From a virus: a stretch of 64,000 nucleotides of DNA. Made by a program: the position numbers and the translations under genes. Shown one piece after another: positions 15,676 to 35,837 of this stretch. The notes beneath the pieces were generated by a model. It had not been told where the DNA came from. It did no database searches and saw nothing but the letters and a program-made list of their open reading frames with translations. The stretch lies in IMG/VR virus record IMGVR_UViG_3300012943_000031, positions 32,001-96,000 of that record. The stretch is one strand, 5' to 3'. The stretch's first letter is position 1. Every line of letters starts with the position of its first letter.

Positions 15676-15720
15676 TAACTATTGAAAACCTCGGTTGTTG
15701 GTTCTCCGAGAACAGTTTAT

Positions 15721-15744
15721 AGGGCCATCTCTATGGCCCTTTTT
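15721..15744 (+). terminator. Intrinsic terminator
   Basis: AGGGCCAT-ctct-ATGGCCCT-TTTT. Confidence 0.8.
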
Positions 15745-15782
15745 ATCTGGCACAATTTTTGAACATTATAAATATAAAAGCT

Positions 15783-15830
15783 ATGACAATCTTAAAAGGT
15801 GGAGGATGTGGATGTGGTGGAAAAAAATAA
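15783..15830 (+). CDS. Putative micro-peptide MTILKGGGCGCGGKK
   Basis: ATG with A-rich upstream context; GCGCGG motif; TAA stop. Confidence 0.35.
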   Translation: MTILKGGGCGCGGKK

Positions 15831-15852
15831 TTTCCCATTTTCACAAAATAAA

Positions 15853-15884
15853 TTTGGAATTTGCCAAATTACTTCGTATATTTG
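15853..15884 (+). promoter_or_regulatory. Bacteroidota sigma promoter P1 (tRNA operon 1)
   Basis: TTTG at 15853 and TATATTTG at 15877; matches -33/-7 consensus. Confidence 0.85.
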
Positions 15885-15888
15885 CATT

Positions 15889-15978
15889 ATGAATTTACAT
15901 CGTACACATACATGGTTTACTACTTGTCCCCAATGTCCATTTGGAGGAGAAGGGTGTTGTATGTGTGAAAATAAATAA
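15889..15978 (+). CDS. Attenuator leader peptide 1 (MNLHRTHTWFTTCPQCPFGGEGCCMCENK)
   Basis: Codons 4-18 encode only H,R(CGT),T,W,F,C,P,Q, the amino acids of the nine downstream tRNAs; contains antiterminator arm GAAGGGT. Confidence 0.85.
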   Translation: MNLHRTHTWFTTCPQCPFGGEGCCMCENK

Positions 15979-15998
15979 GTTTTTTCTTATTCATACTT

Positions 15999-16039
15999 AA
16001 AAACCCTTCAGTAATCCAATCACAACTGAAGGGTTTTTT
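15999..16039 (+). terminator. Attenuator terminator 1
   Basis: 14-bp stem AAAAACCCTTCAGT/ACTGAAGGGTTTTT plus U tract, just before tRNA-Pro. Confidence 0.9.
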
Positions 16040-16047
16040 CTTTTTAT

Positions 16048-16123
16048 CGGGTAGTGGGAGAATGGTTAGTCCACTATGTTTGGGGCATAGAAAATGTCAG
16101 TTCGAGTCTGATCTACCCGACCA
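16048..16123 (+). tRNA. trnP: tRNA-Pro(UGG)
   Basis: Cloverleaf; anticodon arm CTATG-TTTGGGG-CATAG; CCA encoded. Confidence 0.92.
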
Positions 16124-16129
16124 AATAAT

Positions 16130-16205
16130 GCCAGTGTAGCACAACAGGTAGTGCAGTACTCTTGTAAAGTAAAGGTTGCAAGTTCGATTCTTGTCACTGG
16201 CTCCA
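16130..16205 (+). tRNA. trnT: tRNA-Thr(UGU)
   Basis: GCCAGTG/CACTGGC acceptor; loop CTTGTAA; CCA. Confidence 0.92.
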
Positions 16206-16213
16206 AATTATAT

Positions 16214-16287
16214 GGCCGTATAGCCAAGTGGTAAGGCACATGTCTGCAAAACTTTGATCCCCAGTTCGAATCTGGGTACGGCTTCCA
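16214..16287 (+). tRNA. trnC: tRNA-Cys(GCA)
   Basis: GGCCGTA/TACGGCT acceptor; loop CTGCAAA; U73; weak anticodon stem. Confidence 0.85.
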
Positions 16288-16290
16288 TAT

Positions 16291-16365
16291 GGTGCACTAA
16301 CTCAATGGTAGAGTTCCTCCCTGAAAAGGAGGGTGTTCCCAGTTCAAGTCTGGGGTGTACCACCA
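16291..16365 (+). tRNA. trnF: tRNA-Phe(GAA)
   Basis: CCTCC-CTGAAAA-GGAGG; CCA. Confidence 0.92.
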
Positions 16366-16368
16366 CAT

Positions 16369-16439
16369 ACGGGTATGGTGAAATGGTATCATAACAGTCT
16401 CCAAAACTGCTGTTCAGGGTTCGAATCCTTGTACCCGTG
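16369..16439 (+). tRNA. trnW: tRNA-Trp(CCA)
   Basis: ACGGGTA/TACCCGT acceptor; CAGT-CTCCAAA-ACTG; G73. Confidence 0.9.
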
Positions 16440-16491
16440 CTTTTTCTTATTCCCACATTTCCCTGAGAAATCAAACTTGTGGGTTTCGTAT

Positions 16492-16565
16492 TGTCTCATG
16501 GTGTAATGGCAACATAAGAAGCTTTGACCTTCTTGTTTCAGGTTCGAGCCCTGATGGGACATCCA
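16492..16565 (+). tRNA. trnQ: tRNA-Gln(UUG)
   Basis: AGAAG-CTTTGAC-CTTCT; CCA. Confidence 0.92.
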
Positions 16566-16570
16566 AATAT

Positions 16571-16641
16571 TACCTTATAGTGTAATGGTAACACACCACT
16601 CTCTGAAAGTGTTGTTTAAGGTTCGAGTCCTTATAAGGTAA
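16571..16641 (+). tRNA. trnQ: tRNA-Gln(CUG)
   Basis: TACCTTA/TAAGGTA acceptor; loop CTCTGAA. Confidence 0.88.
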
Positions 16642-16643
16642 CT

Positions 16644-16717
16644 GTGACTATAGCTTAATGGTTTAGAGCCCTTGGTTGTGACCCAAGGTAGTGTCAGTTC
16701 GAATCTGATTAGTCACC
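16644..16717 (+). tRNA. trnH: tRNA-His(GUG)
   Basis: CTTGG-TTGTGAC-CCAAG; C73. Confidence 0.9.
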
Positions 16718-16722
16718 TAAAT

Positions 16723-16793
16723 GCCCTATTAGTATAATGGAAGTATCTGAGAATACGAATCTCAGGGTAGGAGTTCAAATCTTCTATAGGGTT
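16723..16793 (+). tRNA. trnR: tRNA-Arg(ACG)
   Basis: TGAGA-ATACGAA-TCTCA; GCCCTAT/ATAGGGT acceptor. Confidence 0.85.
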
Positions 16794-16820
16794 CTGGTAC
16801 ACTTCTTGCTATATGAAAGT

Positions 16821-16997
16821 ATGGTAATGAAAGGTAAAAATAAACTAGAAAGAATGGAATTACGTGCTGCTAAAAGATTTAACAGACGTTCTAAGAAAAT
16901 AAAATTCCATCTTACTAATGATTGGAGTTGGACATTTCCTATCCCTAAAGAGGGAATTCCAAAAATAGTTGAAGAAATATTTGGAAACGGCAAATAA
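16821..16997 (+). CDS. Small basic hypothetical protein
   Basis: 3' part of ORF 16737..16997 outside the tRNA; ATG at 16821 or 16827. Confidence 0.4.
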   Translation: MVMKGKNKLERMELRAAKRFNRRSKKIKFHLTNDWSWTFPIPKEGIPKIVEEIFGNGK

Positions 16998-17011
16998 ATG
17001 TCGTATCTTTG
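16980..17011 (+). promoter_or_regulatory. Bacteroidota sigma promoter P2 (tRNA operon 2)
   Basis: TTTG 16980 and TATCTTTG 17004, same spacing as P1. Confidence 0.85.
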
Positions 17012-17038
17012 TATTATAAAATTTAAAAGCAGCAAATA

Positions 17039-17113
17039 ATGTACTTAATAAATATGATAGTGGATAGAATTAATGGGGCAGAGAAATCTGGCTCTGGACT
17101 TCTATTGTCATAA
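17039..17113 (+). CDS. Attenuator leader peptide 2 (MYLINMIVDRINGAEKSGSGLLLS)
   Basis: Codons 4-16 (I,N,M,I,V,D,R-AGA,I,N,G,A,E,K) match operon-2 tRNAs; contains a 15-nt antiterminator arm. Confidence 0.85.
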   Translation: MYLINMIVDRINGAEKSGSGLLLS

Positions 17114-17140
17114 TCATAGTACTGATTACCAATATTTTAG

Positions 17141-17177
17141 AAGCCCAGAGCCTACGAAAGTTAGCTCTGGGTTTTTT
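17141..17177 (+). terminator. Attenuator terminator 2
   Basis: AAGCCCAGAGC...GCTCTGGGTTTTTT, 3 nt before tRNA-Lys. Confidence 0.9.
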
Positions 17178-17180
17178 AAT

Positions 17181-17253
17181 GCCCTTGTAGCAAACTGGTT
17201 GTAGGCAATAGTCTTTTAAACTATGGGGTCTGGTTCGATTCCAGACGGGGGTA
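17181..17253 (+). tRNA. trnK: tRNA-Lys(UUU)
   Basis: ATAGT-CTTTTAA-ACTAT; T arm TCTGG-TTCGATT-CCAGA. Confidence 0.88.
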
Positions 17254-17261
17254 CACAATAT

Positions 17262-17333
17262 GCAGGATTAATTCAATGGTAGAAATCCATCTTTACATGG
17301 TGGAAGCTGGGAGTTCGAGTCTCTCATCCTGTA
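17262..17333 (+). tRNA. trnV: tRNA-Val(UAC)
   Basis: CCATC-TTTACAT-GGTGG. Confidence 0.9.
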
Positions 17334-17339
17334 CAATAA

Positions 17340-17411
17340 CTCTCTATAGCACAATGGAAGTGTAACTGCCTTCTAAGCAGTTTGGTATAGGTTCGAATCC
17401 TATTAGAGAGT
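17340..17411 (+). tRNA. trnR: tRNA-Arg(UCU)
   Basis: ACTGC-CTTCTAA-GCAGT. Confidence 0.9.
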
Positions 17412-17456
17412 CAGGTCAGTTTTCCAATTCTGCGTGGAGTACAAAATTGGATATAT

Positions 17457-17528
17457 TCCTCATTAGCTCAATGGTAGAGCGCAAAGCTGTTAACTTTGGA
17501 GATTTAGGTTCGAGTCCTAAGTGGGGAG
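17457..17528 (+). tRNA. trnN: tRNA-Asn(GUU)
   Basis: CAAAG-CTGTTAA-CTTTG; G73. Confidence 0.92.
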
Positions 17529-17538
17529 CATAATTACA

Positions 17539-17613
17539 TGTAGGGTGGACTGGAGATGGTTCCAGCTTGGTCTCATAAGCCAAATGACAGGGGTTCGAAT
17601 CCCTTCCCTGCAT
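17539..17613 (+). tRNA. trnM: tRNA-Met(CAU), initiator-like
   Basis: TTGGT-CTCATAA-GCCAA; TGTAGGG/CCCTGCA acceptor; atypical D arm. Confidence 0.8.
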
Positions 17614-17619
17614 CTATAC

Positions 17620-17770
17620 TGTAAGGTGGTGAAATAGGCAGACACATCCACTTGTCTCGTGGACACAGATAAAGAAATAGATTAGGTATAATGGGGTTGA
17701 CCACTAATGTTTAACTTATTGTGTATCTAATTGAATCTCTGTATGAGTGGTTCAAATCCCTCCCTTACAG
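17620..17770 (+). ncRNA. tRNA-like RNA with ~80-nt variable region
   Basis: TGTAAGG/CCTTACA acceptor, class II-like D arm, TCCAC-TTGTCTC-GTGGA arm, long base-paired insert, GGTTCAAATCC T loop. Confidence 0.7.
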
Positions 17771-17776
17771 CAACAT

Positions 17777-17850
17777 TGCACATTAGCCAAGAGGTCTAAG
17801 GCATCACTCTCATAAGGTGACATTCATGAGTTCGAATCTCATATGTGCAA
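17777..17850 (+). tRNA. trnM: tRNA(CAU), elongator Met (or Ile2)
   Basis: TCACT-CTCATAA-GGTGA; TGCACAT/ATGTGCA acceptor. Confidence 0.88.
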
Positions 17851-17879
17851 CATTTGATAATTTTCCTTATATTTGTAAA

Positions 17880-18347
17880 ATGGAAAAGTATTTCAGAACA
17901 GAGCAAGGAGAAAGAGTAAATATAGTTGAACACACTTTGGAACAAATCCAGAAGTGGCCCAACCTAGAGATTTACATAGCAACAGACTCTCAAGACCAAG
18001 GTGGAAAGAGTAGATATGCTACAGTAATTGTCTACAGATATGGGAAAAGAGGTGCTCACTATATATACTTTAGAGAAGACGTACCACGTTGTAAGGACAT
18101 GTATACTCGTCTATATGATGAGGCTGTTCGTACAATTGATACAGCACAGTTAATAGACAGTGAGATACCTGTTAAGTTTGCCGGGTTAGAGTTTGACTAC
18201 AATAACCTACCAAGACATAACAGTAACAAATTACTCTCTTCTGTAAGAGGATGGGTAACAGGATTAAATTACAATGCTGTCTTCAAAGGTGATGAATTAG
18301 TAGCTGCAAAAGCTGCTGACCATGTTTGTAGACACAAGAATATATAA
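17880..18347 (+). CDS. RNase H-like YkuK/DUF458-family protein
   Basis: IYIATDSQ, YATVIV, RLYDEA, EFDYN, AAKAADH motifs; ATG17880 lies 4 nt after TATATTTG (17868). Confidence 0.8.
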   Translation: MEKYFRTEQGERVNIVEHTLEQIQKWPNLEIYIATDSQDQGGKSRYATVIVYRYGKRGAHYIYFREDVPRCKDMYTRLYDEAVRTIDTAQLIDSEIPVKFAGLEFDYNNLPRHNSNKLLSSVRGWVTGLNYNAVFKGDELVAAKAADHVCRHKNI

Positions 18348-33797: not shown

Positions 33798-35837
33798 ATG
33801 CCAAGTAAAATAAATGATGCAACATATAAGCAGACCTACTTCTTCACAGATGATTTCAGTGATACTGCTAAAGACAATCCTTCACTAAATGGGCAACCTG
33901 ATATTAACACAACAATTAAGGAAAACCCATATCGTTCAAACGTGGAGATTGAGGGAGGAGAATTAGTTCTCCAGCCTGATCTATCAGCTTTATTCAAAGC
34001 TAATGGTGACAAACACTCTAAGGGTGGTATGAATGTACTACTTAAGCCAGATTCTTTTGTCTTCTCTGATTTCAAGGATTTATCCATATCAGATAATGAG
34101 AAGGAATTTTTCCAGCTTAAATTAGGTGGATCATCATCTCCAACAAAGAATACTCCTGCTGAAGTTGTTAAGAAAAATGTCGATGTAAAACATTATAACA
34201 CATTGATTAACAACATACAAGACCCATATAAAGACGAGTTGGCAAGAAAATCTTCTGCTATGATGTTGGAGAAATATATTGGTACTTTGGGTAATATTGC
34301 TTATCTACAGGAAGCTAAGAAAGGTTTCCCAGATGGATTACCTTCATTCTCAGTAGGTGCAGCACCGGTATTTGAAGAAGGTACAAGAGATGCTGTAGAT
34401 GAAAGTAAACAGTTTGCTAAATATGGTGGTACTATTGGTAACCCTTACATGCAGGTGGGTGGTAATCCATTCCTACCATTCAATCAACAGTTCCCACCTG
34501 CATCACCACGTACTACAAGAAAAGGTAGAAATTATAAACCTCCTGTAGATGTAGCTAATGTTGTTACACCTCCAGCAGTAAATAAATCTACTACAGCAGG
34601 AATCAATCCAATACCTTGGGGCTTATGGCAAGGTGATAAATTACCTATATTCCAAAATAGATTTGGTGTAACTAATGCTGCCGATAAGTTTGATGATTTA
34701 AAGAATTGGGATGCAGTTGCACAAGGATTAGGATATACTGGCCCTAAAGATAACAAGAAGTTCCAAGAGTGGTTGTATAGTTCATCACCTCAGAATAAAG
34801 CTATCATTGATAAATGGCATACACAATATGAAGACCCTTCTATTGCAAATCCTTCTGATAAAAGAAACAGATTTGACCAGAAGATTGGTATTCGTTGGGC
34901 TAATGCCATCAGAGAGATTATGAATCCTCCAAAAACTCAAACTCATCCACCAAGAGAACGTGATACTGAGCCCCCTATGCATAGTATTCCTCCTCCACCT
35001 CAGAATATCCCCGGCCCAAATCCCGGTGAAGTTAGTGGTGATCCTCAGGGTTGGAAGAGAGCAGACTGGGAATTCACACCTTGGCAGAAGTTGTCTCAGC
35101 TTTATAACTGGGGTCAATATGCTAATGTTAGGAGATATATGCCATATCGTTCACGTTACAATGCAACATATGCTGATCCTACATTACTGAACCCAGAACA
35201 AACAGTGGGAGATGTGAAAGGTCAGGTTTCTCAACAGTTAGGTGCTTTAGGAACACTTAATCCTATTATGAGAAATGCACAAGCAGCAGCTTCTTATGGA
35301 GCAGCTTTAAATGCAATTCCTAATATTCGTACTCAGTATGACAACCAGAATGCTCAAATCCAGAACCAGTTCCGTCAATATAACAATCAGGTTCGTAATA
35401 ATGAGAGTATGGTTAATATGAGTAATGACCAACAATACTACCAACAGGCTGTAGAAGGACGTAAAAACTTTGATAACTTACGTCAGTTTGCTGCTAATAA
35501 TGCTATGAATAACGTCCTGAGAGATGTGGAAACTAACCAGAAACTGGCTTATAACCTACTTTCCCAGAACAATCCTGCTTACAGTTATGACTGGAGAACA
35601 GGTGACTTCATGCGTAACAAAATGGACATCAGAGATGTTTCAGCAGACAATACTGTAGAAGCTTACCAAGATTTATTTGACGCTATTGGACAGGTGACTG
35701 ATCCTTACCAGAAAGCTCAATTACTGGAAAAAGCCTACAGACAGAAGAATATTATGCCTTATTTGAAGAACAATAATTCCGGATTCAGTCCTTATGGACA
35801 GAAGAAGGGTGGTAAAGTTAAGAATCCATTCAGATAA
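33798..35837 (+). CDS. Putative cargo/ejection protein
   Basis: EIEGGE...GDKHSKGG motif; Gln/Asn-rich C-terminus. Confidence 0.6.
   Translation: MPSKINDATYKQTYFFTDDFSDTAKDNPSLNGQPDINTTIKENPYRSNVEIEGGELVLQPDLSALFKANGDKHSKGGMNVLLKPDSFVFSDFKDLSISDNEKEFFQLKLGGSSSPTKNTPAEVVKKNVDVKHYNTLINNIQDPYKDELARKSSAMMLEKYIGTLGNIAYLQEAKKGFPDGLPSFSVGAAPVFEEGTRDAVDESKQFAKYGGTIGNPYMQVGGNPFLPFNQQFPPASPRTTRKGRNYKPPVDVANVVTPPAVNKSTTAGINPIPWGLWQGDKLPIFQNRFGVTNAADKFDDLKNWDAVAQGLGYTGPKDNKKFQEWLYSSSPQNKAIIDKWHTQYEDPSIANPSDKRNRFDQKIGIRWANAIREIMNPPKTQTHPPRERDTEPPMHSIPPPPQNIPGPNPGEVSGDPQGWKRADWEFTPWQKLSQLYNWGQYANVRRYMPYRSRYNATYADPTLLNPEQTVGDVKGQVSQQLGALGTLNPIMRNAQAAASYGAALNAIPNIRTQYDNQNAQIQNQFRQYNNQVRNNESMVNMSNDQQYYQQAVEGRKNFDNLRQFAANNAMNNVLRDVETNQKLAYNLLSQNNPAYSYDWRTGDFMRNKMDIRDVSADNTVEAYQDLFDAIGQVTDPYQKAQLLEKAYRQKNIMPYLKNNNSGFSPYGQKKGGKVKNPFR

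Follow-up and report, generated by a model that had tools for sequence, protein, structure and literature searches.

A probable leader-peptide attenuator of tRNA genes in a putative crAss-like phage

Leader-peptide attenuation is a textbook mechanism, which is known for genes making or charging amino acids and not for tRNA genes. Its representatives in amino-acid biosynthesis operons are trpL, hisL, leuL and pheL, and the multivalent thrL and ilvL, and in the pheST attenuator of E. coli a leader peptide controls an aminoacyl-tRNA synthetase. In the present work we have analyzed a stretch of 64,000 nucleotides (hereafter the window, positions 32,001-96,000 of the virus record IMGVR_UViG_3300012943_000031, the whole record being 106.8 kb with a completeness of about 72%), in which a short open reading frame (ORF) and a terminator precede nine tRNA genes. 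It is likely that this locus, referred to as unit 1, is a ribosome-mediated (leader-peptide), multivalent transcription attenuator of the tRNA genes, and the phage probably makes the unit 1 tRNAs only when the ribosomes are short of them. In full-text literature searches no account of leader-peptide control of tRNA genes was found; our best reading is trp-type attenuation with tRNA genes as the regulated genes.

The proposed device is alike the trpL, hisL, thrL and ilvL type in its short ORF rich in regulatory codons, its helices 1:2, 2:3 and 3:4, its intrinsic terminator and the read-through which would follow the stall, and it shares with the thr and ilv attenuators that more than one amino acid would be sensed. 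It differs from the trpL/hisL-type attenuators, since here tRNA genes instead of enzymes would be regulated (the classical scope is biosynthesis or synthetase genes), eight to ten amino acids are represented by one to three codons each whereas there runs of one are found, and the mRNA is apparently leaderless, derives from a phage of Bacteroidota and has no sequence or Rfam relation to the classical leaders. With pheST it has in common the leader-peptide attenuation of a translation-apparatus gene serving the sensed codon, but pheST senses a single amino acid and its product is a protein, not a tRNA. T-box riboswitches, known mainly from Firmicutes, likewise read tRNA charging and choose between terminator and antiterminator, however, they bind the tRNA directly without the ribosome and possess a specifier loop and the T-box motif; neither the T-box nor the Rfam leader families (His, Trp, Thr, Leu etc.) gave a match in positions 15700-21700 of the window, at gathering score or at E up to 1. 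The nearest published case is the trn operon of Anabaena, a silent array of 26 tRNA genes, which is induced under translational stress and controlled at the promoter by the ribbon-helix-helix repressor TrcR (PMC8421152, PMC10272220); leader, attenuator and terminator are all unmentioned in the 2021 paper on this operon. The trn operon and unit 1 are alike in that extra tRNA genes would stay off until translation is impaired, but the control of trn is exerted by the TrcR repressor at the promoter.

The codons of leader 1 match the tRNAs which follow it. Codons 4-18 belong exclusively to the eight amino-acid classes of the nine following tRNAs and all eight classes are represented, as had been claimed in an earlier, sequence-only reading of this DNA. 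These classes account for 24.5% of the codons in the long ORFs of the phage; the probability that 15 codons all fall into the set and show all eight classes is 3.2e-11 per stretch of 15 codons, and among 213,672 such stretches, taken in six frames from the whole 106.8-kb genome, this was the single match. In 2 million random 28-codon peptides the longest comparable run was 12. The coordinates given by the sequence-only reading for the stop of the ORF, for GAAGGGT (15949-55) and for ACCCTTC (16003-09) were all exact, and the nine tRNAs which it named were found by both ARAGORN and Rfam. Outside the match the tail of leader 1 reads Gly, Gly, Glu, Gly, followed by UGU-rich codons, and this tail constitutes segment 2 (Table 1). 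An exact 17-mer search with leader 1 returned only one known relative and two chance matches.

Relatives of the locus were collected by protein-anchored scans of IMG/VR and JGI metagenomes, which gave 13 informative contigs (labelled L003, L007, L141 etc.) with flanking proteins 40-78% identical to those of the window, and 29 leader units were tabulated. In 11 relatives an ORF of 24-46 codons stands at the site equivalent to leader 1. The promoters were located by a regular-expression scan of the genome; in the window the promoter of unit 1 occurs also at 16980 (unit 2), 19892 (suppressor tRNA) and 20650 (unit 3). The ATG of leader 1 is situated 4 nt downstream of its promoter, therefore the mRNA should be leaderless or nearly so. 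The promoter-to-ATG distance is identical in L003, L141, L144 and L146 and in the cultured Cellulophaga phage phi38:1, and in L003 real genes (HNH endonucleases) begin 4-5 nt after the same type of promoter. Shine-Dalgarno motifs were seen in 4 of 64 long ORFs of the phage versus 12% of random 17-mers; since these motifs are lacking and the HNH genes start 4-5 nt from the promoter, leaderless ORFs appear to be normal in these phages. Additionally, the start regions of the phage genes are A-rich at -11 to -13 and at -3, a pattern which, without Shine-Dalgarno motif, we take to be the initiation signature of Bacteroidota.

The stem of the unit 1 terminator (16003-12/16025-34, lengthened by A:U pairs) has 10-14 bp and -18 kcal/mol, and it is followed by a tract of 11 T interrupted by one C (16034-45). 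It was overlooked by the terminator scan due to the loop limit of the latter and was identified by folding. The terminator ends 9 nt upstream of tRNA-Pro, with the T tract reaching 16045 and tRNA-Pro beginning at 16048. No promoter motif was detected by the regular-expression scan between 15884 and 16980, and there is no space for one between the terminator and tRNA-Pro, therefore the transcription of the nine tRNAs must cross the terminator.

Table 1. Features of the three leader units, of the tRNA island in the window and of the corresponding units in phage phi38:1
Feature	Position	Strand	Description
Promoter of unit 1, Bacteroidota type	15853-15884	+	TTTG (15853-56), 20-nt spacer, TATATTTG (15877-84)
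Leader ORF 1	15889-15978	+	ATG at 15889, 29 codons and TAA stop (15976-78)
Putative sensing core, codons 4-18	15898-15942	+	His, Arg(CGT), Thr, Trp, Phe, Cys, Pro and Gln only
Segment 1, within core	15903-15912	+	Pairs with 15957-15966 (helix 1:2, anti-antiterminator)
Segment 2, antiterminator 5' side	15949-15979	+	GAAGGGT, GTATG, ATAAG; tail codons 21-29 and stop
Segment 3, antiterminator 3' side	15986-16012	+	CTTAT, CATAC, ACCCTTC; overlaps terminator 5' arm ACCCTTCAGT (16003-16012)
Segment 4	16025-16045	+	Terminator 3' arm ACTGAAGGGT (16025-34), then T tract
Unit 1 tRNAs	16048-16794	+	Pro(TGG), Thr(TGT), Cys(GCA), Phe(GAA), Trp(CCA), Gln(TTG), Gln(CTG), His(GTG), Arg(ACG); ARAGORN and Rfam
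Unit 2	16980-17178	+	Promoter 16980, leader 17039-17113, terminator about 17142-17173
Unit 2 tRNAs		+	Lys, Val, Arg(TCT), Asn, Met, Gly, Glu, Asp, Ile, Ala
RNase H-like protein	17880-18347		Within tRNA island; PF04308, 55.6 bits
HNH homing-endonuclease gene	18633-19031		In tRNA array region of the window
Suppressor tRNA, anticodon CTA	19892-20007	+	Own copy of the same promoter at 19892
Peptidyl-tRNA hydrolase, PTH2 family	20036-20500		Within tRNA island; Pfam 30 bits, cut-off 23
Unit 3	20650-20817	+	Promoter 20650, leaderless leader 20686-20733, terminator 20782-20817
phi38:1 unit A			Lys, Ile, Gly, Met, Asp, Thr, Val, Arg(AGA) tRNAs; all in leader core, eight classes within 15 codons
phi38:1 unit B			Tyr, Ser, Asn, Trp, Phe, Cys tRNAs; all in leader core
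phi38:1 unit C			Leu, His, Gln, Glu, Pro, Arg(CGA) tRNAs; all in leader core

The minimum-energy fold of the full leader (15889-16046) consists of helix 1:2 (15903-12/15957-66) and the terminator, with -44.9 kcal/mol and a z of -4.32. The antiterminator is the minimum-energy fold of the transcript that ends before the terminator 3' arm (15943-16012: -19.2 kcal/mol, z -3.55, none of 200 shuffles folding equally well), thus the GAAGGGT/ACCCTTC pairing predicted by the sequence-only reading was recovered in the cut transcript, together with the supporting pairs GTATG (15959-63)/CATAC (15992-96) and ATAAG (15975-79)/CTTAT (15986-90) which it had also named. The duplex of the core with segment 2 has a z of -2.53 (p 0.013), and that of segment 2 with the terminator 5' arm has -12.2 kcal/mol versus -7.5 in shuffles (p 0.023); helices 1:2, 2:3 and 3:4 are mutually exclusive in unit 1. 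For the geometry of the ribosome a co-transcriptional proxy, in which folding was confined to the RNA downstream of a 30-nt ribosome footprint and transcription was halted before the 3' arm, replaced equilibrium folding. In this simulation the probability of the antiterminator was >= 0.9 as long as the A site was at codons 2-17 and fell to 0 from codon 18 onwards; the permissive zone, whose last codon is 17, nearly coincides with the matched core, and this coincidence of zone and core end holds in most of the 29 units.

Among the relatives the composition of the core is conserved and the order of its residues is permuted: unit 2 of L003 has the ten amino acids of the window's unit 2 in a different order, and the Trp position varies in unit-1 leaders. 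Over the tabulated units, which share ancestry, a tRNA class present in the unit has a codon in the core in 171 of 189 cases and an absent class in 111 of 420, an odds ratio of 26. The simple antiterminator boundary rule failed for L144 unit 1, L146 unit 1 and L153 unit 3, and these three were counted over the whole ORF in this test, by which the match was diluted. Losses of tRNA genes are mirrored in the leaders as well. In three contigs tRNA-Cys is the only tRNA; their leader ends its permissive zone with a tandem pair of Cys codons and is free of codons for His, Arg, Trp and Phe. L150, which is devoid of tRNA-Arg(ACG) in unit 1 and of tRNA-Arg(TCT) in unit 2, misses Arg codons from both cores. 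Conversely, leader codons that seemed mismatched in L150 foretold Thr and His tRNAs, both of which were then detected by relaxed ARAGORN, and in unit 3 of the window the Tyr codons of the leader likewise foretold a tRNA-Tyr that default ARAGORN had missed.

The RNA elements have been retained together with the codons. The leader is complementary to its own terminator 5' arm beyond dinucleotide shuffles in 24 of the 29 units (mean z -3.7), and the complementary segment starts 6-12 nt past the core in every case. When every terminator arm was compared with all 29 leaders, the own leader came first in 11 and among the top three in 21 (median rank 2), and the arm of unit 1 of the window ranked its own leader 1/29. 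For helix 1:2 significance was reached by 20 of 26 units. GAAGGGT/ACCCTTC and the unit-2 arms differ between the window and L003, and the differences are compensated on all three strands. With few exceptions, all of which have an HNH homing-endonuclease gene between the two, the terminator ends 5-14 nt upstream of the first tRNA. Taken together, the leader-peptide attenuator proposed by the sequence-only reading is supported at every sequence-level prediction (promoter, helices, geometry, conservation and co-variation).

HNH homing-endonuclease genes in and around the arrays were seen between the leader-1 terminator and tRNA-Pro in L141/L142 and L147 and after the leader-2 terminator in L142, often with their own promoter copy. 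Another small element accompanies leader 1: a micro-ORF of 14-30 codons with a Gly-Cys-Gly-Cys-Gly core, which adjoins leader 1 in the window (15783-15830) and is kept in relatives (L003 2474-2535, L007 8749-8841, L144, L146, L147 and L151), before or after leader 1. In several relatives it has a promoter of its own, and it occurs even in L151, which is without tRNAs; in L153 it is fused in frame to leader 1, and in L145 it is attached to the tail of leader 2.

Units 2 and 3 of the window show all three helices and the same stall geometry as unit 1. In the leader of unit 2 the core of 13 codons represents precisely the ten classes found among its tRNAs (Ile, Asn, Met, Val, Asp, Arg(AGA), Gly, Ala, Glu and Lys), while the leader of unit 3 has a Ser/Leu/Tyr core upstream of Leu, Leu, Ser and Tyr tRNAs. 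The cores of the three units jointly cover all 20 amino acids.

The arrangement is found in unrelated phages, too. A scan with the promoter pattern gave two unrelated contigs: in L045 the leader core consists of Thr, Met, Asn, Leu, Val, Ile and Arg and the following tRNAs are exactly those seven, and in L038 a core rich in Phe, Asp, Glu and Ala stands upstream of Asp, Ala, Phe and Glu tRNAs. The cultured phage phi38:1 (KC821614.1, L156) has three leaderless leaders behind the same type of promoter, its units being situated near 35283, 36744 and 37987. It splits the amino acids among its units otherwise than the window does, and its leaders match its own split; in unit C the core has 13 consecutive codons from the six classes of the unit only. 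In unit B seeming mismatch codons predicted unannotated Trp and Cys tRNAs, and relaxed ARAGORN found both. In the GenBank entry of this region (KC821614.1 32021-39099) leader A is given as the hypothetical protein gp066 and leader C lies within gp070, and at least eight tRNA genes found by ARAGORN are unannotated (Met, Ile(TAT), Tyr, Ser(TGA), Trp, Cys, Pro and Glu). The Bacteroides phage crAss001 has no such device, its array following a promoter and a 4-codon ORF without terminator, therefore the attenuator is not general among crAss-like phages. One further contig, L054 (52-codon ORF, terminator and seven tRNAs), was not counted, its codon-to-tRNA match being unconvincing.

The anatomy, statistics, alternative folds, geometry, conservation and co-variation given above were computed here; from these we infer that the leader is translated and termination regulated, and what the physiological trigger would be. 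In the proposed mechanism the host RNA polymerase would initiate at the promoter of unit 1 and a ribosome would load on the 5'-proximal AUG. Upon smooth decoding the ribosome would move onto codons 18-29 (segment 2), the terminator (16003-16034) would form and transcription would end 2-14 nt upstream of tRNA-Pro. A shortage of charged tRNA for any of His, Arg(CGN), Thr, Trp, Phe, Cys, Pro and Gln would stall the ribosome in codons 4-17, where it would cover segment 1 or be past it, and segment 2 would be left free to capture the emerging terminator 5' arm, which would allow read-through into the nine tRNA genes. In an untranslated leader helix 1:2 would form first and the terminator next, so that the default state would be off. 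Since the products would be the sensed molecules, the circuit would constitute a multivalent negative-feedback loop on tRNA supply, responding to any of the eight. Possible triggers are a loss of tRNAs through infection or defence systems, a mismatch of codon usage, and amino-acid starvation.

Several observations weigh against this mechanism or qualify it. Codons 2-3 of leader 1 (Asn and Leu) are not among the amino acids of unit 1, and its tail has five conserved Cys codons and a Gly/Glu stretch; the conservation of the tail would be explained by RNA pairing, but also by a small Cys-rich peptide. The unit-1 leaders of L146 and L147 have no Arg codon despite tRNA-Arg(ACG), and the leader of L141 has a Trp codon where no tRNA-Trp was detected. 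The counts over the relatives, 171/189 included, do not come from phylogenetically independent units. When the full transcript was folded at equilibrium with a ribosome mask, the terminator won at every ribosome position, therefore the switch must be kinetic, as in trp. It had been proposed by the sequence-only reading that a ribosome running to the stop codon would disrupt the antiterminator; in the simulation a ribosome that has moved further does mask the antiterminator, but one halted at the stop would occupy about 15961-15990 in the inner antiterminator and would not itself lie on GAAGGGT, which is covered with the A site at codons 18-27. Finally, the stall of the ribosome is the same for shortage of tRNA and shortage of amino acid.

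This last point leads to an alternative with the same hardware, in which the ribosome would respond to amino-acid starvation (uncharged tRNA) or to stress of translation in general, and the tRNAs made would be incidental or would raise the capacity of translation as a whole. It is established for the trp and his attenuators that a stalled ribosome reports charged tRNA alone, and the sole published stress-induced extra tRNA genes, those of the Anabaena trn operon, respond to translation inhibitors. Nevertheless amino-acid starvation is not relieved by extra tRNA, and the one-to-one match between the leader and the tRNAs of its unit is what product feedback selects and would be needless for a general stress sensor, hence we regard this alternative as unlikely.

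Secondly, the ORF might encode a functional Cys-rich microprotein (e.g. metal-binding), the hairpin being an ordinary leaky terminator and the codon match incidental. The five Cys codons with CxxC-like spacing in all unit-1 leaders speak for it, as does the neighboring conserved Gly/Cys micro-ORF, which is fused to the leader in L153; we consider it very improbable, however, since the order of the core is permuted in relatives while its composition is kept, the leaders of units 2 and 3 and of phi38:1 have the same architecture without the Cys motif, the Cys codons of the tail correspond to the UGU repeats engaged in pairing with segment 1, and an incidental codon match has a probability of about 1e-11. 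The terminator/antiterminator alternatives are by themselves no proof of a role of the ribosome, and an RNA-only or protein-dependent switch, for example a tRNA-binding leader of T-box type or an antiterminator protein of the phage, could also use them, the ORF being untranslated. This is scarcely credible, because the Rfam search was without any match to the T-box or another leader family in 15700-21700 even at the relaxed threshold, and the frame, the placing of the start behind the promoter and the amino-acid composition have been preserved via synonymous changes, which would be needless for an untranslated RNA.

The three units are part of a tRNA island with 25-26 tRNA genes at 16048-21396, all on the + strand (ARAGORN and Rfam). 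Tyr(GTA) tRNA (21401-21474) was detected by relaxed ARAGORN settings only and missed by default; a probable Ser(TGA) tRNA (about 21211-21300) was recognised by eye, having been missed by default ARAGORN, and a tRNA-like sequence at 17620-17771 is called only if a 74-nt intron is allowed. The suppressor tRNA has neither leader ORF nor terminator, therefore it is exempt from the attenuation scheme; L017 is arranged alike. A basic 58-codon ORF without family match (16821-16997) separates unit 1 from the promoter of unit 2, which overlaps the end of this ORF. Inside unit 3, between tRNA-Leu and the Ser tRNAs, positions 21015-21194 match the Rfam archaeal RNase P RNA weakly (19.9 bits, E 0.011, far under the gathering score of 84), and this stretch may be a minimal RNase P-like RNA, or nothing.

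The genome has a G+C content of 36.5% and giant ORFs, the largest with 3158 codons, and its tail protein matches the Pfam family CrAss_Ring_2. Judging from the giant ORFs and this single Pfam match, which are the entire basis of the assignment, the source virus is a large crAss-like phage. A search for sequencing runs that contain the stretch listed no RNA run. In a phage database blastn gave similarity at tRNA level only and the putative major head protein had no tblastn match, and PHROG and Pfam had no family for most of the large ORFs.

It should be emphasized that in the proposed multivalent attenuator the sensed molecule would be the product itself, that one leader would integrate up to ten amino acids, and that the design recurs in unrelated phages with other groupings. 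If it is true, it would explain how large phages can dispense with the synthesis of dozens of tRNAs as long as the pool of the host suffices, and it might be a phage answer to tRNA-depleting defences. It would also provide a predictive sequence rule, by which the leader lists the content of its operon, and this rule has already flagged tRNA genes missed by annotation; furthermore, such leaders could serve synthetic biology as compact sensors of decoding capacity with several inputs. The cultured phi38:1 offers a system for direct testing of the attenuator. Tentatively, and with more doubt than confidence, the three attenuators may be seen as an on-demand counter-defence and homeostasis circuit, in which each unit would fire only on loss of one of its own tRNA species and the peptidyl-tRNA hydrolase (20036-20500) and the suppressor tRNA would belong to the same translation-rescue module; the causes of tRNA loss would be, for example, host anticodon nucleases, tRNA decay in infection or the codon-usage mismatch of a new host. 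Were this so, the phage would monitor all 20 amino acids via test translations in three channels and would replace only the missing tRNAs.

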